From: a virus
Taxonomy: Duplodnaviria; Heunggongvirae; Uroviricota; Caudoviricetes
Length of the DNA: 64,000 nucleotides
Virus record (IMG/VR): IMGVR_UViG_3300037455_000402
Coordinates: 10,951-74,950 of that record
Strand: one strand, 5' to 3'
Part shown: piece by piece, positions 2,774 through 19,239 of the stretch
Layout: each line of letters starts with the position of its first letter
Numbering within the stretch: the first letter of the stretch is position 1
Made by a program: the position numbers and the translations under genes
The notes under the pieces: model-generated
What the model was told of the DNA's origin: nothing
What the model saw: the letters and a program-made list of their open reading frames with translations, nothing else
Databases searched by the model: none

Positions 2774-2850
2774 TGGAGCTCCCGACAGGAATCGAACCTG
2801 CAACCTTCCGCTTACAAGGCGGACGCACTACCTATTGTGCTACAAGAGCA
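2774..2850 (-). tRNA. tRNA-Thr(UGU)
   Basis: cloverleaf by hand; anticodon loop CTTGTAA; T-arm GGTTCGATTCC; G1-C72,C2-G71; CCA encoded. Confidence 0.8.
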
Positions 2851-2952
2851 TCACAAGACGGGGATTTTGATACGGAATTGAACCGTTTGATTTTTTCGGA
2901 ATAGAAATTATTTACCTTAAACTATCAAGTATAGATTGCTGAACCGTCTTAT
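2851..2952 (-). ncRNA. Y-RNA-like structured RNA, short variant (family member a)
   Basis: 5' AAUAAGACGG..CAGCAAUCUAUA box, 3' CCGUCUUGU complementary 7-bp terminal stem; internal T-arm-like ACGGTTCAATTCCGT; flanked by tRNA-Phe and tRNA-Thr. Confidence 0.45.
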
Positions 2953-3028
2953 TGGTGCCGAGGGGGAGAGTCGAACTCCCTACGCCAAGCTCTTCAGGCT
3001 TGCGCTCTACCAGTTGAGCTACCTCGGC
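2953..3028 (-). tRNA. tRNA-Phe(GAA)
   Basis: anticodon loop CTGAAGA; D-arm TAGCTCAACTGGTAGAGC; CCA encoded. Confidence 0.8.
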
Positions 3029-3169
3029 ATTGGTGTCAGTTTTACTTCGCTTTCTTATTTTTTATAGAGGCGTTATCCGCTAAGCCACATATCTGACGCT
3101 CATTGATAAATCGCTGATTGTCTGTCGGTGGTAGTTGAAACTGACAAAATCCGTGTTAACCCCTCTTAA

Positions 3170-3246
3170 TGGTCGGAGATGCGGGACTCGAACCCACAGC
3201 CTCTGCGTCCCAAGCGCAGCCGTCTACCAAATTGGCGTAATCCCCG
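3170..3246 (-). tRNA. tRNA-Pro(UGG)
   Basis: anticodon loop CTTGGGA; C1-G72 typical of bacterial Pro; CCA encoded. Confidence 0.8.
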
Positions 3247-3316
3247 AGGAGTGCGGCATTACCCAGCCGCATGGGTGAATGAAAACATTCCTTTTAATGA
3301 GAACCTTTCGGTTCTT

Positions 3317-3395
3317 TGGTGGAGAAGACGAGCCTCGAACTCGCGACCTCCTGCTTGCAAGGCAGGCGCTCTCCCAGCTGAGCTACAACCCCATT
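3317..3395 (-). tRNA. tRNA-Ala(UGC)-like with imperfect acceptor stem
   Basis: anticodon loop CTTGCAA; G3:U70 present; U5-U68 and U6-U67 mismatches in acceptor (GGGGTTG / CTTCTCC); CCA encoded. Confidence 0.55.
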
Positions 3396-4013
3396 TGACT
3401 TGAAAACTTCATAAAAAATATGATTGCCAGTTTTTATCCTGTACTCATACAACGCTACGCATTATTCAGCCACAGTGACGATAAGTCTGAGCCCCATCCC
3501 CGTCGAGATGAAACTTCTTACCGCAGTTTCCGAAGAAACCCAAGCACTAAGGGGACTCTGTTTACCCCCAACTTTCACCCGTCATTCAGAATATTTGATT
3601 ACTATAAATCTTCTTTAAAGTTTTCAAACCAAACTGAGCCTTGGGCTACTCGCACCACCGTCAGGTTCTTACACGTTTCCGTGTAAGTGTAGGCTCAACT
3701 CCATTATTTTGCGTTCCCTGTATTTGCTCACGTCTTGCGGACGTGGTCTGCAGGGTTATTCCTCACTGAGGCGTCTATTGTTGGAGCAACCAGTTTAGGT
3801 GTGCCATTGCTCACGTTGCACCTGTGCCACGACTTCTCTCTTGATGGCTGGTATACCATCTTGTTCCGCCGCCTTTCGACTTCGGAAAAGAAACCTTATC
3901 AAGGTATCCCTTGACCTGACCTCTCAGCAGTTTCACCGTGCCCTTGCAGAGCTGACTAAGCCCTCATTTTAACACAAGGTTACAACATACTTTTTATGAA
4001 GTTTTCAAGTTTC
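3396..4013 (-). ncRNA. candidate large structured ncRNA (~620 nt; ROOL/GOLLD-like placement)
   Basis: no ORF >90 aa on either strand; 5' ACUUGAAAACUUCAUA and 3' UAUGAAGUUUUCAAGU form a perfect 15-bp terminal stem; sits between tRNA-Ile and tRNA-Ala. Confidence 0.45.
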
Positions 4014-4090
4014 TGGTGCCGCCGAGAAGATTCGAACTTCCGACCTCTCGGTTATCAGCCGAGTGCTCTAACCAACTGAGCTACGACGGC
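4014..4090 (-). tRNA. tRNA-Ile(GAU)
   Basis: anticodon loop CTGATAA; T-arm GGAAGTTCGAATCTTCT; CCA encoded. Confidence 0.8.
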
Positions 4091-4177
4091 ATTTGGTGAA
4101 CCATAAAGTCGGCTCATACTACACATCTATCACCTTTTTTTATAGTAGGAGTCTCATTTGTTCTTAAAACCTACTTG

Positions 4178-4253
4178 ATGGAGCGAGATAAGGGAATCGA
4201 ACCCTCACCCTCTGCATGGCAAGCAGAGATTCTAACCGTTAAACTAATCCCGC
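4178..4253 (-). tRNA. tRNA-Gly(GCC)
   Basis: anticodon loop TTGCCAT; acceptor GCGGGAT/ATCTCGC; CCA encoded. Confidence 0.75.
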
Positions 4254-4321
4254 ATTAATTCCAACTATTAACCGAAGTTGGCACGAGATTGTGAGCAATC
4301 ACCTTGAAAATGCCCGAAGGC

Positions 4322-4410
4322 TGGCGGGAGCGACAGGGTTCGAACCTGCATAGGAAATAAATTTCCGACGGTTAACAGCCGCCTGCCTGAGACCGTTAGG
4401 CTACACTCCC
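4322..4410 (-). tRNA. type-II (long variable arm) tRNA with GUU anticodon, G73 discriminator (Ser-like body, Asn anticodon)
   Basis: acceptor GGGAGTG/CGCTCCC, anticodon stem GGCGG/CCGTC loop CTGTTAA, 13-nt variable hairpin GGAAATTTATTTCC, T-arm GCAGGTTCGAACCCTGT, GCCA end. Confidence 0.5.
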
Positions 4411-4419
4411 ATTTTAAAT

Positions 4420-4495
4420 TGGCGACTCCAACGGGACTCGAACCCGTAACTCCAGCGTGACAGGCTGGTGACTTAACCAGTTAATCGACAGAGCC
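4420..4495 (-). tRNA. tRNA-Asp(GUC)
   Basis: anticodon loop CTGTCAC; T-arm ACGGGTTCGAGTCCCGT; CCA encoded. Confidence 0.75.
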
Positions 4496-17590: not shown

Positions 17591-17599
17591 TTAACCTTT

Positions 17600-17637
17600 T
17601 CTATATTAATTATACCACATTTTTCTTTAAAAGTCAA
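17600..17637 (-). promoter_or_regulatory. consensus promoter TTGACT-N16/17-TATAAT
   Basis: TTGACTTTAAAGAAAAATGTGGTATAAT. Confidence 0.65.
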
Positions 17638-17656
17638 GATTTTATTTTCTTGAAAT

Positions 17657-17926
17657 TTATTCAGCAGACTCAGTTGTAGCTTCTGTAGCCTCGACAGTAG
17701 TTGTCTCAGTTTCAGTAGTAGCTTCAGTAGCCTCAGTCTCTGTGGTAGCTGTTGTCTCTGTTGTATCAGCCTCGGTTGCAGTTGTGTCTGCTTCAGTTGT
17801 TTCAACTTCAGTAGTTACAGCTGTGGTAGTCTCGGTTTCGCTTGAACTGTCACCCTTAGGAGAACAGGAAACGGTAGCCATTACCATTGCGAGAGCTAAT
17901 ACGCTAACTGCGAAAAGCTTTCTCAT
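17657..17926 (-). CDS. secreted lipoprotein with Thr/Glu-rich low-complexity region (89 aa)
   Basis: signal peptide MRKLFAVSVLALAMVMATVSC with lipobox; TE-rich repeats. Confidence 0.6.
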   Translation of the reverse strand: MRKLFAVSVLALAMVMATVSCSPKGDSSSETETTTAVTTEVETTEADTTATEADTTETTATTETEATEATTETETTTVEATEATTESAE

Positions 17927-17953
17927 TGCGTTTACACCTCTTTTATTTGGATT

Positions 17954-17991
17954 ATATATAAATTATATCATATTTTTAAATTAAAGTCAAG
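17954..17991 (-). promoter_or_regulatory. consensus promoter TTGACT-N17-TATAAT
   Basis: TTGACTTTAATTTAAAAATATGATATAAT. Confidence 0.7.
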
Positions 17992-17995
17992 TTTT

Positions 17996-18760
17996 TCACT
18001 CGAAATTAATTTTTGAATTGATATAATCTCTATCTTCTGTGAAGATTGGAATGTTATCATCAACTACCCAGCCTTCGTCGCTCTTGTAAACACAAGAACC
18101 ACGCTTCTGATATGTAGTAAGATTATTCCAATTAACTCCCTTCTCAGTGAACATCTTATCCTGTAAATCATTACAAGATAAGCCCTGAAGTTCCTTGTGA
18201 GAGAACATAGACTGAGCGAGAGCCTGAATTGAATTTCTTGTAGCGTCCTGCTGACGCCAGATTAAACAGTTAACAACCTCGTGTCTTGGAAGATTGAAAG
18301 CTCGGCAGTCGAAAAATGCTCCGTGATTTCTCTTGTTATTAAGAAGAGCACAACGAGGAGTCATCTTATTTCCTGCTTCTGCAAATAAATCTGCCGCCAT
18401 ATTGTCAATGGTAAAATTAAATGCCCAAGTTGCCATTGAAGCCGCAACAGCAGTCATCTTCTGAACATTATAATTATACCAACACTCGGTATCAATTGAC
18501 TGATAATCACAAAGCACAAGAGTAATTTCATCAGACTGAGTATATCCAAGAACACAGCCCTGAATATTCTTAGCAAGATACTCCATTGCATTTGTCATAC
18601 CTGCCTCAATTGCTTCATCAAAAGGCTTATCAAAACCTCTTGTAAAAGTATGGAAAGCTTTTCCATCAAGACGAAGAATTACTGGAGTCTTTTTCATAAG
18701 ATAATTCTTCGATACAGCTTCATAGCCTTTCATACGATTTCCTAATGAAGTCTTATCCAT
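17996..18760 (-). CDS. Thg1-like protein (tRNA-His guanylyltransferase / 3'-5' polymerase family)
   Basis: start at MDKTSLG (AAAGGAAG RBS); N-terminal ...MKKTPVILRLDGKAFHTFTRGF... matches the Thg1 signature around the catalytic RxDG/HxFT motif. Confidence 0.6.
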   Translation of the reverse strand: MDKTSLGNRMKGYEAVSKNYLMKKTPVILRLDGKAFHTFTRGFDKPFDEAIEAGMTNAMEYLAKNIQGCVLGYTQSDEITLVLCDYQSIDTECWYNYNVQKMTAVAASMATWAFNFTIDNMAADLFAEAGNKMTPRCALLNNKRNHGAFFDCRAFNLPRHEVVNCLIWRQQDATRNSIQALAQSMFSHKELQGLSCNDLQDKMFTEKGVNWNNLTTYQKRGSCVYKSDEGWVVDDNIPIFTEDRDYINSKINFE

Positions 18761-18783
18761 AACATATCTTCCTTTCTGATTTT

Positions 18784-18821
18784 CTATATATATTATAACA
18801 AAAATTTTGAAAAAAGTCAAG
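18784..18821 (-). promoter_or_regulatory. consensus promoter TTGACT-N17-TATAAT
   Basis: TTGACTTTTTTCAAAATTTTTGTTATAAT. Confidence 0.7.
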
Positions 18822-18830
18822 ATTTTTATT

Positions 18831-18904
18831 TGGTTGGGGCAGAGGGATTCGAACCCCCGATTGCAGGGTCAAAGCCTGTTGTGTTACCACTTCACTATAC
18901 CCCA
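18831..18904 (-). tRNA. tRNA-Gln(UUG)
   Basis: U1-A72 TGGGGTA/TGCCCCA; anticodon loop CTTTGAC; CCA encoded. Confidence 0.75.
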
Positions 18905-19163
18905 ATCTCTTCTGGTATAAATTCATAACATAGCCAAGTAAAACCATACGGATATGAATAGATACAGCGGTCATAAGTATAAAGAAAATGTCCCATTAGT
19001 CTGCGACCATAATCATCTTGGTAATTATTCATCACTAACCAGTTTTTGTATTCATCGGTATCTTCGATGTAATCCATAAACTATCTTATGGTTATATTTT
19101 CTAAATAGCTTTGATTGTCTTTTAATACTGTATAAGTCATATTCCTTTTCTCCTATAATTTGG

Positions 19164-19239
19164 TGGGGTGAAGGAGGAGAATCGAACTCCCAACTGCAGA
19201 GCCACAATCTGCCGTGATAACCATTTCACCACCGACACC
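19164..19239 (-). tRNA. tRNA-His(GUG) with encoded G-1
   Basis: anticodon stem GCAGA/TCTGC loop TTGTGGC; extra 5' G opposite C73; acceptor has U4-U69 and C5-U68 mismatches; CCA followed by a second CCA. Confidence 0.65.

Follow-up and report, generated by a model that had tools for sequence, protein, structure and literature searches.

The 64,000-nucleotide stretch of DNA analyzed here (the window) carries a minus-strand RNA island bounded by the promoter that precedes tRNA-His and by the final tRNA ahead of the following promoter (Table 1). Between positions 2774 and 19239 (16.5 kb) ARAGORN and Rfam identify 40 canonical and 2 non-canonical tRNAs and a tmRNA, all on the minus strand. With default settings ARAGORN reports 41 tRNAs and one tmRNA, from 2774 to 19238 and on the minus strand throughout, as well as two further tRNAs outside the island (40447-40532 and 40762-40836). 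A whole-window scan with the Rfam tRNA model recovers 39 island tRNAs at the gathering score, and a 40th (13752-13825, 54.3 bits) passes with relaxed filters. The island totals 42 tRNAs and the window 44 (40 + 2 robust), as a sequence-only reading had proposed together with the tmRNA, the strand and the coordinates; its inventory holds up under the automated tools, and its 42nd tRNA is evidently the non-canonical Ser(UGA) gene at 13938-14029. Its duplicates (Asp, Phe, Pro and Tyr twice, Glu and CAU three times) and its C1-G72 and U1-A72 first pairs were listed correctly, and its estimate of at least 19 amino acids plus amber is exceeded: all 20 are covered, and there are two CUA suppressors.

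Nearly every island tRNA has an encoded CCA. Transfer RNA genes occupy 20% of the island and coding sequence 28%; the remaining 52% is non-coding sequence other than tRNA, in keeping with the earlier estimate that roughly half is non-coding; we count 11-12 open reading frames with ribosome-binding sites, where eight protein genes had been proposed. One near-consensus sigma-70-type promoter recurs about 15 times and cuts the island into about 15 short units. Twenty-one copies of it were aligned, and 14 island sites match 11 of the 12 consensus positions.

Table 1. Features of the island and of the Ro60-like locus, all on the minus strand. tRNAs are ARAGORN calls that also match the Rfam tRNA model RF00005, unless a remark gives another basis.
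Feature	Position	Remarks
Box-stem	41101..41238	right after promoter, heading unit that ends in Ro60-like gene
tRNA-Gly(UCC)	40762..40836	outlier
Box-stem, minimal form	40682..40758	4 nt after tRNA-Gly
tRNA-Leu(CAA)	40447..40532	outlier
Box-stem, minimal form	40306..40367	~25 nt upstream of Ro60-like gene
Ro60-like protein	38803..40281	Pfam DUF2828 + DUF7788 (a vWA domain)
Whole RNA island	2703..19335
Promoter	19301..19329	TTGACT-17-TATAAT
tRNA-His(GUG)	19164..19239	ARAGORN; encoded G-1 (19239) opposite C73; mismatches U4.U69, C5.U68
Possible small ORF	18892..19139	low confidence; RBS, in-frame TAG; between tRNA-His and tRNA-Gln
tRNA-Gln(UUG)	18831..18904	U1-A72/A73
Promoter copy	18792..18820
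Thg1-like protein (bacterial TLP type)	17996..18760	PF04446 1.8e-30; phrog_4717 5.8e-87; PDB 4kgk 1e-58
Promoter copy	17962..17990
Small lipoprotein-like ORF	17657..17926	89 aa
Promoter copy	17609..17637
E7, conserved RNA motif	17011..17171	invariant 22-mer ACATCTACTGCTGACGATGTAA
tRNA-Leu(AAG)	16828..16910
tRNA-Glu(UUC)	16656..16731
Box-stem, long form	16522..16653	stem AAGATACG/CGTATCTT, CAGCAATCTAT box, then T-arm, 7-bp capped acceptor-like stem, D-arm
tRNA-Leu(UAA)	16432..16516
YkuK-type RNase H-like protein	15875..16399	PF04308, 1.5e-41
E6, ~115-nt element	15625..15748	downstream of YkuK-like gene; highly conserved, six relatives
tRNA-Leu(UAG)	15319..15401
Box-stem, long form	15060..15191	acceptor-like stem capped by ACCA-TCAT
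tRNA-Val(UAC)	14977..15052
E5, conserved structured RNA candidate	14621..14976	356 nt; flush between tRNA-Val and tRNA-CAU
tRNA, CAU anticodon	14547..14620	Met, fMet or Ile2
Promoter copy	14509..14537	heads Lys-Sup-Ser-Ser-Sup-tmRNA unit
tRNA-Lys(UUU)	14350..14427
Amber suppressor tRNA(CUA)	14270..14344	U1-A72/A73 as in Gln tRNAs
Box-stem, long form	14133..14266	begins 4 nt past suppressor tRNA
tRNA-Ser(GCU)	14034..14127	A2.C71 mismatch
tRNA-Ser(UGA), non-canonical	13938..14029	ARAGORN only at -ps90/-ps80; T-loop CTCGACA
Box-stem	13833..13934	ACGATAG/CTATCGT stem, T-arm-like hairpin; 4 nt after Ser(UGA); homologue in relative L016
Amber suppressor tRNA(CUA)	13749..13825	ARAGORN; Rfam with relaxed filters; U1-A72/A73
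Box-stem, minimal form	13680..13745	4 nt after suppressor tRNA, upstream of tmRNA
tmRNA	13302..13652	tag ANDFAFAA*; ARAGORN; Rfam RF00023 107.8 bits, cut-off 47
ORF	12771..13271	166 codons; one in-frame TAG, strong RBS
Promoter copy	12673..12701
ORF	12473..12640	55 aa
ORF	12337..12471	44 aa, hydrophobic
ORF	11814..12380	188 aa; no family match
Promoter copy	11773..11802
tRNA-Cys(GCA)	11636..11726	91 nt, long variable arm (class-II shape), U73
tRNA-Arg(ACG)	11346..11420
tRNA-Thr(AGU)	11268..11343
Promoter copy	11215..11243
ORF	10787..11179	130 aa; phrog_6306 (function unknown)
tRNA-Pro(UGG)	10444..10519
Promoter copy	10394..10422
tRNA-Glu(CUC)	10191..10266
tRNA-Tyr(GUA)	9878..9966	89 nt; C1-G72; weak score, 34.6 bits
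tRNA-Gln(CUG)	9798..9871
E2, conserved structured RNA candidate	9402..9797	396 nt; flush between two tRNA-Gln genes
tRNA-Gln(CUG)	9328..9401
tRNA-Val(GAC)	9106..9180
Ala-type tRNA-like gene	8818..8896	ARAGORN; 79 nt; G3.U70, C33, odd D arm
Box-stem, long form	8666..8814	complete permuted tRNA-like core, capped by ACCA-TTAT
tRNA, CAU anticodon	8581..8657
Aberrant tRNA-like gene 'Ser-gga'	8482..8552	ARAGORN + Rfam; 71 nt
tRNA-Trp(CCA)	8046..8119
Promoter copy	7992..8020
ORF	7687..7956	89 aa
tRNA-Arg(UCU)	7423..7497
Promoter copy	7364..7392
ORF	6983..7330	115 aa
Promoter copy	6934..6962
tRNA-Glu(UUC)	6736..6812
tRNA-Lys(CUU)	6463..6540
tRNA-Phe(GAA)	6383..6458
Promoter copy	6328..6356
ORF	5827..6285	152 aa
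tRNA, CAU anticodon	5709..5782	U1-A72
Promoter copy	5650..5678
Promoter copy	5464..5492
tRNA-Asn(GUU)	5340..5415
HDV-like ribozyme candidate	5013..5084	Rfam 30 bits, below cut-offs 44 and 50
tRNA-like element	4782..4851	6-nt anticodon loop; kept in relative
tRNA-Asp(GUC)	4687..4763
tRNA-Tyr(GUA)	4505..4589	C1-G72
tRNA-Asp(GUC)	4420..4495
tRNA-Asn(GUU)	4322..4410	89 nt, long variable arm (class-II shape), G73
tRNA-Gly(GCC)	4179..4253
tRNA-Ile(GAU)	4014..4090
ROOL RNA, full length	3408..4003	Rfam RF03087 264.1 bits, cut-off 99.1
tRNA-Ala(UGC)	3317..3392	U5.U68, U6.U67 mismatches
tRNA-Pro(UGG)	3170..3246
tRNA-Phe(GAA)	2953..3028
Box-stem	2855..2950	AT-rich tRNA-like core
tRNA-Thr(UGU)	2774..2849

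Several genes depart from the usual tRNA form. The class-II-shaped tRNA-Cys is kept in a relative, and the tRNA-Asn of similar shape is missing from the closest relative. The Ser(UGA) gene scores 42.8 bits with the Rfam tRNA-Sec model, below the cut-off of 47. The Ala-type gene fails the Rfam tRNA model and is 100% identical in a relative, and 'Ser-gga' has G33, lacks CCA and forms a poor acceptor stem.

Conserved RNAs between the tRNA genes

The spacers between the tRNAs are explained in part by a ROOL RNA, copies of a box-stem element, four elements designated E2, E5, E6 and E7, and a sub-threshold HDV-like ribozyme. The proposal that the spacers are structured holds for a substantial subset of them; 31% of the island is without assignment, and the fold z-scores of several spacers lie close to zero. 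The ROOL RNA lies 10 and 15 nt from its flanking tRNAs, has a fold z-score of -5.45, and is also found in a relative. Homologues of E5 were found, with 15 pairs showing compensatory change and 140 nt invariant in relative L018, and E2 is probably its paralogue. In E7 the covarying helices cross in a pseudoknot-like manner. None of E2, E5, E6 and E7 has an Rfam match, and from sequence comparison we count them as at least four more RNAs that show conservation and covariation. The HDV-like candidate is conserved and its flanks are variable. The sequence-only reading mentioned neither the ROOL RNA, TAG recoding and the ~15 internal promoters, nor the box-stem family and its link to a Ro60-like gene.

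Y-RNA-like elements and a Ro60-like protein

The box-stem family has ten elements in the window, seven wedged between tRNAs in the island and three near 40.5 kb. Each has a terminal stem of 7-9 bp (AAGA-N...N-TCTT-G) with a conserved CAGCAATCTAT (CAGCAAT) box just inside the 5' strand, and half of them contain a tRNA-like core consisting of a variable region, T-arm, capped acceptor stem and D-arm, the same permuted order as in YrlA. Sites defined by the box (n = 11) lie on the minus strand throughout, and at 10 of the 11 a closing stem of 7 bp or more directly precedes a G, compared with a background of 3.2%. The window and relatives contain 39 instances. Terminal stem covariation is 0.539 versus at most 0.087 when the stem is slid, with the percentage paired inflated by the choice of stem partners by complementarity. 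The T-arm and acceptor-like stem also covary. The long-form element at 16522..16653 matches the Rfam YrlA model with 34.5 bits (E = 2.6e-5), below the cut-off of 69. In known Y RNAs a CGAA/GNCGAA motif mediates Ro60 binding, whereas the box-stem elements are without it. As judged from these alignments, the box-stem elements are a single new family of tRNA mimics that resemble Y RNAs.

The gene that adjoins the two outlier tRNAs encodes a protein with no Pfam TROVE match. Its AlphaFold2 model (pLDDT 91.2) has a predicted fold matching Ro60, the best 13 Foldseek PDB matches all being Ro60/TROVE (E = 6e-9 to 4e-6), one of them a phage Ro60. Three box-stem copies belong to the transcription unit of which this gene is the last, and seven of the ten elements are 20-38 kb away from it. 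For phages, a Ro60 gene preceded by Y-like RNAs has published precedent (PMC12135203, PMC4201824). Box-stem RNAs and the Ro60-like protein may form Ro60-type RNPs, which could have a part in RNA quality control or protect phage RNAs from host exonucleases.

TAG recoding and the proposed role of the island

TAG is almost never a stop codon in the window, yet a subset of genes contains many in-frame TAGs. There are 43 in-frame TAGs at 53-64 kb; open reading frames of 1015 and 499 codons have 20 and 13, and the stop codons of 31 other genes are TAA (19), TGA (10) and TAG (1). This usage indicates that the phage reads TAG as a sense codon, and the presence of two CUA suppressors is explained because TAG is recoded. 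Where TAG makes up 2.1% of codons, CAG accounts for 0.7% instead of 2.0%, and this depletion fits TAG being read as Gln. Both suppressors have U1-A72/A73, as do the three Gln tRNAs, and that pair occurs in just one other island tRNA, the CAU tRNA at 5709-5782. Codon statistics and tRNA resemblance together make Gln the most likely meaning. A comparison of codon usage with the tRNA set, suggested earlier, shows that the set matches the phage's own preferences: Leu-AAG, Thr-AGU and Arg-ACG correspond to the favored codons CTT, ACT and CGT, and the two Gln-CUG genes to the preference for CAG.

IMG/VR contains syntenic relatives, the element's relatives are 168-184 kb long, homologues occur on contigs of 168-188 kb, and many of the 313 homologues of the YkuK-type protein are on contigs of 165-185 kb. 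We conclude that the element is a tailed gut phage with a genome of roughly 170-185 kb. Contigs of 182-184 kb that carry the E7 22-mer are binned with Ruminococcus, Ca. Fimenecus and Oscillospiraceae MAGs, and strong Shine-Dalgarno sites and TTGACT/TATAAT promoters offer a further hint. The host is probably a member of the gut or rumen Oscillospirales (Clostridia), an assignment made solely by metagenomic binning.

We interpret the locus as a translation and RNA-maintenance island of a TAG-recoded tailed phage, with Y-like RNAs and repair enzymes, and assign this reading a probability of roughly 0.78. The units would be transcribed by host RNA polymerase from early infection on, and the tRNAs cut out by host RNase P and 3' processing. 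Since tRNAs closely flank ROOL, E2, E5 and the box-stem elements, this processing presumably frees these larger RNAs as discrete molecules as well. The suppressors would allow translation of the TAG-containing genes, and the full tRNA set could free translation from the effects of host tRNA depletion or cleavage. Near the island are genes for two RNA ligases, a Pnkp-like kinase with an HD domain and a metallophosphoesterase, and the known roles of these families suggest that, with the Thg1-like 3'-5' polymerase, they could repair tRNAs cut by host nucleases.

Comparison with known phage tRNA arrays

The island combines canonical tRNAs, class-II-shaped Cys and Asn tRNAs, degenerate tRNA-like genes, a tmRNA, ROOL, Y-RNA-like mimics and unclassified RNAs. 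It was first described as far larger and more heterogeneous than ordinary phage tRNA clusters; it is indeed unusually large and mixed, but "far larger" is tempered by the similar array of phAss-1. Huge phages and mycobacteriophages have similar or higher tRNA counts, and some of them also carry a tmRNA. In the TAG-recoded gut phage phAss-1 the array is very similar, with 36 tRNAs in 12-17 kb and small open reading frames interleaved (PMC10607447), and large tRNA arrays in TAG-recoded phages are thus of an already published kind. What is new here is the Y-like family and the E elements, part of a between-tRNA content that is mostly undescribed.

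The tRNA complement and the reassigned TAG codon

ARAGORN identifies 44 genes in the window, of which 41 tRNAs and a tmRNA lie on the minus strand in the tRNA-rich island and two further tRNAs lie near 40.4-40.8 kb; feature coordinates are collected in the table. At gathering thresholds Rfam confirms 39 island tRNAs, and a permissive Rfam scan adds a suppressor at 13752-13825 (54 bits) and a tRNA-Sec-like match that ARAGORN, at a relaxed threshold, resolves as a class-II tRNA-Ser(UGA) with an unusual T-loop. The sequence-only reading had counted 42 tRNAs in the island and two outside it, and this count is right, with 40 of the island genes canonical and two non-canonical; most of its calls hold up against the covariance model, as 40 of the 42 island calls reach the RF00005 threshold of 29 bits (ARAGORN at default settings gives 41), and the unusual first base pairs it described are present in the tRNA sequences. 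The ARAGORN call 'Ser-gga' is clearly aberrant, and at the coordinates used in that check it and the Ser(UGA) call are the only two tRNA ends at which CCA is not encoded. The tmRNA scores 107.8 bits with RF00023 against a cut-off of 47, and ARAGORN recognizes both its tRNA-like domain and a tag reading frame, ANDFAFAA*; the tag in one relative, L155, is ANDFALAA.

The island tRNAs cover all 20 amino acids and include two CUA suppressors, and codon use fits this set. The favored codons CTT, ACT, and CGT correspond to Leu-AAG, Thr-AGU, and Arg-ACG, and the preferred CAG to two Gln-CUG genes; CGG, used four times, is the only codon with no evident reader. Individual tRNAs have further unusual features. 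Two with class-I anticodons, Cys and Asn, carry a long class-II-type variable arm, as do Gln(UUG), CUA suppressor, and Asn tRNAs in relatives, which poses the question of which synthetase charges them. Three otherwise good tRNAs contain acceptor-stem mismatches, and both tRNA-Tyr genes combine C1-G72, of archaeal and eukaryotic type, with a bacterial long variable arm. A suppressor call in L007, a more distant relative that shares the E7 motif described below, has the ochre anticodon UUA instead of CUA. In L006, the closest relative, the anticodon loop of tRNA-Ala(UGC) is split by a 473-nt ORF-bearing insertion, and the orthologue in the window is intact. This insertion may be an intron with a PD-(D/E)xK-type homing endonuclease, and it seems too short to hold a group I core as well as the ORF; PF11645 genes are present in the islands of relatives.

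When TAG is read as a sense codon on the minus strand, fragments merge into one ORF of 1015 codons with 20 in-frame TAGs and another of 499 codons with 13. Four ORFs between 53257 and 63998, these two and a GIY-YIG endonuclease gene among them, contain 43 in all. The genes at 19-52 kb have almost none. Where TAG is used it makes up 2.1% of codons, and CAG there falls to 0.7% from 2.0%; among 31 other genes a single one uses TAG as its stop. Both suppressors share U1-A72 and A73 with the three Gln tRNAs, a combination found elsewhere in the island only in one CAU tRNA. The in-frame TAGs, the depletion of CAG, and the Gln-like suppressors together make a TAG-to-Gln ('code 15') phage the best reading, as published for phAss-1 and others (PMC10607447; PMC9523058), and it is from these features that we infer the amino acid. 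The GIY-YIG sequences of L012 and L016 are too divergent for the TAG residue to be read from an alignment, and a tail-fibre-like fragment sought for the same purpose yielded no viral relative. An initial assignment of one gene as ThyX was dropped, as a PDB search gave no relative.

Coordinates of features in the window and in related contigs
Feature	Coordinates	Remarks
Island tRNAs and tmRNA	2774-19238	minus strand; ARAGORN
tRNA-Leu(CAA), tRNA-Gly(UCC)	40.4-40.8 kb	outliers; ARAGORN
CUA suppressor tRNAs	13749-13825; 14270-14344	
tRNA-Ser(UGA)	13938-14029 (Rfam hit 13942-14029)	non-canonical
Ala-type gene	8818-8896	non-canonical; 79 nt, C33
'Ser-gga' call	8482-8552	
tRNA-Cys(GCA), tRNA-Asn(GUU)	11636-11726; 4322-4410	long variable arm
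tRNA-His	19164-19239	mismatches U4.U69, C5.U68
tRNA-Ala(UGC)	3317-3392	mismatches U5.U68, U6.U67
tRNA-Ser(GCU)	14034-14127	mismatch A2.C71
CAU tRNA	5709-5782	U1-A72/A73
tRNA-like remnants	2862-2930; 4782-4851; 8482-8552	
Thg1-like protein (TLP), a putative 3'-5' polymerase	17996-18760	gene 300 nt from tRNA-His
Rnl1-like ligase	21388-22512	outside island
Rnl2-like ligase	46045-46950	outside island
Metallophosphoesterase	32460-33173	outside island
CthPnkp-like kinase fused to HD domain	41715-42626	
Adenylosuccinate-synthetase-like gene	42697-43848	divergent; adjoins kinase-HD gene
Ro60-like protein gene	40281-38803	minus strand
Promoter copies	2631-59444	about 31, about 15 in island
Promoter-plus-leader repeat, examples	23286-23374; 30380-30451; 42623-42716; 46938-47024	
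Paired GC-rich hairpins	5500-5650	between two promoter copies
No ORF of at least 150 aa	22512-26811; 28082-31539; 47768-50525	even with TAG as sense
Box-stem, full tRNA-like domain	8814; 14266; 15191; 16653	5' ends
Box-stem, T-arm only or degenerate core	13934; 2950	5' ends
Box-stem, in unit of Ro60-like gene	41238; 40758; 40367	5' ends
Box-stem, minimal forms		3 in window; 62-77 nt
ROOL RNA	3408-4003	full length
E2	9402-9797	
E5	14621-14976	
E6	15625-15748	
E7	17011-17171	
HDV-like candidate	5013-5084	
Relatives, long-variable-arm tRNAs	L012 6401-6485; L014 5937-6020; L016 5976-6061, 6734-6824; L155 7871-7957	
L006 (IMGVR_UViG_3300045988_136890)	about 12910-13382	split tRNA-Ala(UGC)
L007 (IMGVR_UViG_3300011008_000029)	3255-3328	UUA anticodon
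L155	1-228; 433-788	two E5-family copies
L151-L153 (CALGTV010000065.1, JAZNZX010000038.1, JAZSHA010000083.1)		MAG contigs with E7 22-mer; 182-184 kb

Organization of the island and its RNA elements

Searches of 50,697 deposited phage genomes with the island and the window (megablast and blastn) return matches of tRNA length only and no close relative, and the island spacers thus have no described relative in that set. Protein-anchored searches recovered a syntenic IMG/VR contig about 92% identical and a further graded series of metagenomic contigs of 168-188 kb.

The island has 11-12 ORFs with ribosome-binding sites, one with an in-frame TAG, and only three have family matches: the TLP (PF04446, 1.8e-30; phrog_4717), a YkuK-type RNase H-like protein (PF04308, 1.5e-41), and a protein matching phrog_6306, the function of which is not annotated. 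The closest solved structure to the TLP is that of the Bacillus thuringiensis TLP (4kgk, 1e-58), with eukaryotic Thg1 matching at 1e-12 or weaker, and as judged by these matches the domain is of the bacterial TLP type and not a eukaryotic Thg1. Because G-1 is already encoded in tRNA-His, and from what is known of TLPs, the protein is more likely to be a 5'-end repair enzyme than a G-1 adder. Two RNA ligases, a metallophosphoesterase, and a kinase-HD fusion whose kinase domain matches that of Clostridium thermocellum Pnkp are encoded outside the island, and ligases, kinase, and phosphoesterase form the classic end-healing and end-sealing set of large phages (PMC7824862). For the adjoining PurA-like gene a PurZ-type role (2-aminoadenine DNA) was set aside, as a PurZ-specific match was sought and none was found. 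Three ORF-poor stretches of the window may hold many small genes or further RNAs.

One promoter, with the consensus AAAATCTTGACTTTT-N-TGnTATAATATATATAGAAAAGG, recurs across the window, and its repetition indicates that the island is a string of short units rather than one operon; terminator-like sites are not enriched. A promoter-plus-leader repeat of about 70 nt, TTGACT-17-TGnTATAAT-ATATATAGAAAAGG, precedes most transcription units across the window. The stretch separating two of the promoter copies contains a pair of similar GC-rich hairpins (GGCGG...GTTTGAAATCCGCC and CTGGCGG...ATTTGAACTCCGCCAG) whose loops resemble T-loops and which are conserved in the relative. By length the island is 27.9% coding sequence, 20.0% tRNA, 4.9% box-stem elements, 3.6% ROOL, 3.5% promoters, 2.1% tmRNA, and 7.2% other named RNA elements, with 30.8% having no assignment. 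Relaxed ARAGORN searches of the island enrich for extra tRNA-like hits at -ps90 only (4 versus 0), and as -ps80 shows no enrichment we do not claim that most spacers are decayed tRNAs. Two-sequence RNAalifold statistics, computed for all spacers, failed to distinguish RNA from coding controls, and we do not use them as evidence.

A motif search seeded with two similar spacers revealed a recurrent sequence, AAGAYAC-N-CAGCAATCTAT, always a few nucleotides after a tRNA CCA, which marks the family that we call box-stem elements. The 5' box alone defines 11 sites in the window, all on the minus strand, and at ten of these a complementary strand 62-149 nt downstream, with a G after it, closes a stem of at least 7 bp; the background is 3.2% of all A[AC]GA sites. 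Inner positions of this terminal stem vary between copies and yet stay complementary; among 29 distinct stems from the window and its relatives, aligned with partners picked by complementarity, there are 51 double-change cells versus 18.4 +/- 2.9 after shuffling, and the covariation score is 0.539 versus at most 0.087 in slid registers. The minimal forms have no tRNA-like domain. The long forms, at 96-149 nt, run from a variable region through a T-arm (loop of GTTCGA type) and a 7-bp stem whose loop is often NCCA to a D-arm. Four long forms have the full domain of variable region, T-arm, acceptor stem-loop, and D-arm, and the T stem and acceptor-like stem covary. No anticodon loop can form, and the possibility that the long forms are permuted genes maturing into working tRNAs was rejected; a theta/HDV fold was also rejected, as the elements are AT-rich, have no GC-rich P1 or P3, and give no Rfam hit. 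Scanning a viral collection with a 15-base box pattern gave almost only chance matches, with a closing stem at 4 of 120 loci.

Four other conserved RNA candidates and a ROOL RNA lie between the island genes. The ROOL RNA, which the sequence-only reading had not named, matches RF03087 over model positions 1-574 of 574 with 264.1 bits (cut-off 99.1). E5 and E2 each occupy all of the sequence from one tRNA to the next, and ROOL comes close to doing so. Relative to a contig about 80% identical, E5 and E2 show compensatory changes at 15 and 13 pairs, respectively; a 140-nt block of E5 is unchanged in L018. The two share a 13-mer and both profiles match the same element in other relatives, so by sequence they are probably paralogues. 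In L155 two E5-family copies flank tRNA-Val(UAC). E7 contains a 22-mer that is invariant even in contigs whose proteins are 44-68% identical, and has three covarying helices, two of which cross, with 19 double-change cells versus 7.0 +/- 2.0 and a score of 0.240 versus at most 0.098 in slid registers, the invariant helix-1 hairpin giving no covariation support. E6 hardly varies among six relatives whose flanks are otherwise unrelated, and it contains a single covarying hairpin. Short, lightly filtered Rfam scans gave no family for E5, E6, or E7 even at E <= 10, and a 22-kb scan gave nothing for E2 at E <= 1. An HDV-like candidate, conserved between variable flanks, scores 30.0 and 30.5 bits, below the Rfam cut-offs of 44 and 50; its 7-bp P1, P3, consensus-like L3, and P1.1 are recognizable, P2 not clearly so.

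The Ro60-like protein and interpretation of the spacer RNAs

Three box-stem copies and the two outlier tRNAs belong to a promoter-to-gene unit at 41.3-38.8 kb that ends in a gene for a 492-aa protein with DUF2828 and DUF7788 domains; the other seven copies do not adjoin this gene. Sequence searches of the protein gave no match to Pfam TROVE (PF05731), only DUF2828 and DUF7788, and no match in the PDB. Its AlphaFold2 model (pLDDT 91.2) has Ro60/TROVE structures as all of its best 13 Foldseek matches in the PDB, over 520-560 aligned columns with TM scores of 0.40-0.57 and including the Ro60 of Thermus phage phiLo, and as modeled the protein has the HEAT-repeat ring and C-terminal vWA domain that define the Ro60 fold. 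That phage encodes two Y-like RNAs immediately upstream of its Ro60 gene; the protein binds them via a CGAA motif, and the resulting RNP blunts the PNPase of the host (PMC12135203).

The box-stem elements have CAGCAAT(C/A)(T/C)AT at the place equivalent to GNCGAA and lack GNCGAA(N)G or CGAA in the 5' strand, and a single copy weakly matches Rfam YrlA (RF02553; 34.5 bits, E = 2.6e-5, cut-off 69), at model positions 24-84 only. They thus fall outside YrlA on both Rfam score and CGAA motif, and their copy number and insertion between tRNAs are unusual for Y RNAs. From their architecture and genomic link to a Ro60-fold protein we read them as a divergent Y-RNA-like class with putative Ro60 binding. 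If they are the Y RNAs of a DUF2828-type Ro60-like protein, then a protein family with homologues in at least 700 phage records, including phages of Mycobacterium, Listeria, Staphylococcus, and Escherichia, would gain a candidate RNA partner and recognition motif, and their placement next to suppressors would tie Ro/Y biology to the control of genetic-code switching.

The boldest reading, to which we give a probability of about 0.35, is that the tRNA array may serve as a production line for previously undescribed structured RNAs released by tRNA processing. These would comprise a Y-like family with its own box that partners a divergent DUF2828-type Ro60 and accompanies the suppressors, the E2/E5 family of about 360-400 nt with a 140-nt invariant core and a context like that of ROOL and GOLLD, and the pseudoknotted E7 of about 115 nt, conserved in Oscillospirales phages of a broad clade; one or more of these RNAs would have a catalytic or architectural role in the takeover of host translation. 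We infer the functions of the island elements throughout. Punctuation by tRNAs is a natural explanation for the defined ends of E2/E5 and E7, which are candidate additions to the few large or ornate RNAs known from bacteria and phages.

It is possible, if somewhat unlikely, that the box-stem elements act without Ro60, as modules for processing or insulating tRNA ends in which the terminal hairpin sets cleavage sites or stops exonucleases, a functional equivalent of theta ribozymes. The positions agree with this. All island copies lie directly against a tRNA 3' end, and most of them against the 5' end of the following tRNA as well; the hairpin begins 3-4 nt past the CCA and stops 4-7 nt short of that tRNA. 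The Ro60-like gene is far from seven of the ten copies. Both suppressors in the window, and those in L014 and L016, are directly followed by a box-stem element, and in published recoded phages 85% of suppressor tRNAs have a theta ribozyme at the same position (PMC10879173). However, neither the invariant single-stranded box nor the full tRNA-like core with covarying T and acceptor stems, kept by half of the copies, is explained by such a role; moreover, the copy at 41238 follows a promoter rather than a tRNA and there are no matches to ribozyme families.

That most of the non-tRNA spacer is functionless debris of rapid gain, loss, and replacement of tRNA cassettes, made up of decayed tRNAs, fused tRNA halves, and promoter copies, we consider unlikely. 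The island is mosaic relative to its closest relative (about 92% identical): many tRNAs are 100% identical, their neighbors (Ile, one Asn, two Glu, Leu-UAG, both Ser, and one Gln) are only 63-85% identical, whole tRNA genes are gained or lost, and 85-nt leader segments are present or absent. The genes around the YkuK-like gene are ordered differently in a relative that shares 93% identity in that protein. On these sequence comparisons the island evolves by cassette replacement, and part of the 31% that has no assignment is thus possibly debris. Three tRNA-like remnants are present, several spacers have folding z-scores near zero, and the order of T-arm, CCA, linker, and D-arm has the look of a tandem-tRNA junction, a known source of false positives with the YrlA model (PMC4201824). 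The named elements, however, are conserved where their flanks vary, including the identical block of E5 in L018 and the invariant 22-mer of E7 in the contigs with divergent proteins; their helices are maintained by compensatory changes, and the box-stem copies are all in one orientation. Arrays of tRNAs in recoded phages are usually reported as gene counts and the sequence between them ignored. In this 16.5-kb island about half is neither coding nor tRNA, and a good part of that is conserved, covarying RNA.

It is quite improbable that the box-stem elements act as DNA, either as recombination sites or as miniature mobile elements (attC-like or MITE-like) that move tRNA cassettes between phages. 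Elements of 62-155 bp with conserved inverted ends (AAGA...TCTT), present in multiple copies at cassette boundaries, would suit such a role, as would the cassette-like replacement seen in the island and the GIY-YIG and PD-(D/E)xK endonuclease genes common in islands of relatives. The inner part of the inverted repeat varies but stays complementary, however, which argues for a folded strand and not a transposase binding site, and T-loop and D-loop motifs are meaningful only in an RNA. Every copy lies on the transcribed strand, and no integrase or transposase was found among the proteins scanned.

The E7 22-mer also occurs on contigs assigned to Ruminococcus, Ca. Fimenecus, and Oscillospiraceae MAGs; these contigs are probably genomes of phages from this clade that were binned along with the bacteria they infect. 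Taken together, this binning, the strong Shine-Dalgarno sites, and the TTGACT-17-TATAAT promoters point to a Clostridia host. Arrays of tRNAs occur in some Firmicutes and mycobacterial genomes and the contigs are labeled as bacterial MAGs, but a cellular tRNA array from a chromosome or plasmid is highly improbable as the source of the island, given that these contigs have the same size as the viral relatives, the relatives of the window are IMG/VR viral contigs, and the window combines repair genes of phage type with in-frame TAG recoding and a promoter repeated about 31 times.

Comparison with known systems

The tRNA cluster of T4 includes two stable RNAs, C and D. Islands rich in tRNAs are already known from TAG-recoded gut phages: phAss-1 (PMC10607447) and the stop-codon-recoded phage clades (bioRxiv 10.1101/2021.08.26.457843) likewise have large Caudoviricetes genomes in which many genes contain in-frame TAG, together with two or three CUA suppressors resembling tRNA-Gln, a predicted Clostridia host, and a single array of 12-17 kb where dozens of tRNAs are interspersed with small hypothetical ORFs. 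The island differs from the phAss-1 array in its tRNA count (42+2 versus 36), in having no nucleotide similarity outside the tRNAs, and in its box-stem and E2/E5/E6/E7 elements, which the phAss-1 array lacks; besides the features compared between the two arrays, the island carries a tmRNA, ROOL, TLP, and a Ro60-like system.

The large-RNA context also has precedent. ROOL lies here in its typical setting, in a phage and beside tRNAs (PMC5737381; PMC12286853), and E2 and E5 resemble ROOL and GOLLD in lying flush between tRNAs and in their large size (356-396 nt), but are shorter than ROOL, match no Rfam family, and have no detected sequence relationship to ROOL. Theta ribozymes (PMC10879173) are likewise structured RNAs immediately 3' of tRNAs, especially suppressors, in recoded gut phages, but the box-stem elements have no HDV-like fold; the one HDV-like candidate in the island is below threshold and 255 nt downstream of its nearest upstream tRNA, tRNA-Asn, whereas theta ribozymes are defined by a cleavage site within about 5 nt of a tRNA 3' end.

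Each of tmRNA, Ro60 with a Y RNA, Thg1, and RNA ligases has a precedent in large phages (PMC4201824; PMC7824862). Cluster C mycobacteriophages and the repair sets of jumbo phages combine many tRNAs, a tmRNA, and a TROVE/Ro-type protein with a tRNA-like RNA, or Rnl1 and Rnl2 ligases, a kinase/phosphatase, and occasionally Thg1. The phage described here belongs to another lineage with a host of another phylum, and differs in its TAG recoding, its multi-promoter layout, the number and placement of Y-like copies, and the extra unclassified RNAs of its island.

The closest parallels to the box-stem elements are the YrlA and other Y-like RNAs that accompany Ro60 (PMC4201824; phiLo Yrl1 and Yrl2, PMC12135203), which are RNAs of about 60-150 nt with a 5'-3' stem, a motif inside the 5' strand, and a tRNA-mimic effector domain in the order variable region, T-arm, acceptor stem-loop, and D-arm. 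They are encoded directly upstream of a Ro60-fold gene, as are three of the box-stem copies, and the RNase P-cleavable YrlA of M. smegmatis has a 7-bp acceptor stem like that of some copies. The box-stem elements differ in having CAGCAAT(C)(T)AT instead of GNCGAA/CGAA and scores below the Rfam YrlA threshold, in their ten copies rather than one to four, most of them embedded between tRNAs and far from the Ro60-like gene, in the existence of minimal forms without a tRNA-like domain, and in a DUF2828/DUF7788 partner rather than TROVE. In the searched literature and Rfam 15 we find no description of the box-stem family, characterized by a CAGCAAT box and by placement between tRNAs, of the pairing of this family with a Ro60-like protein of DUF2828 type, or of the E2/E5, E6, and E7 RNAs.
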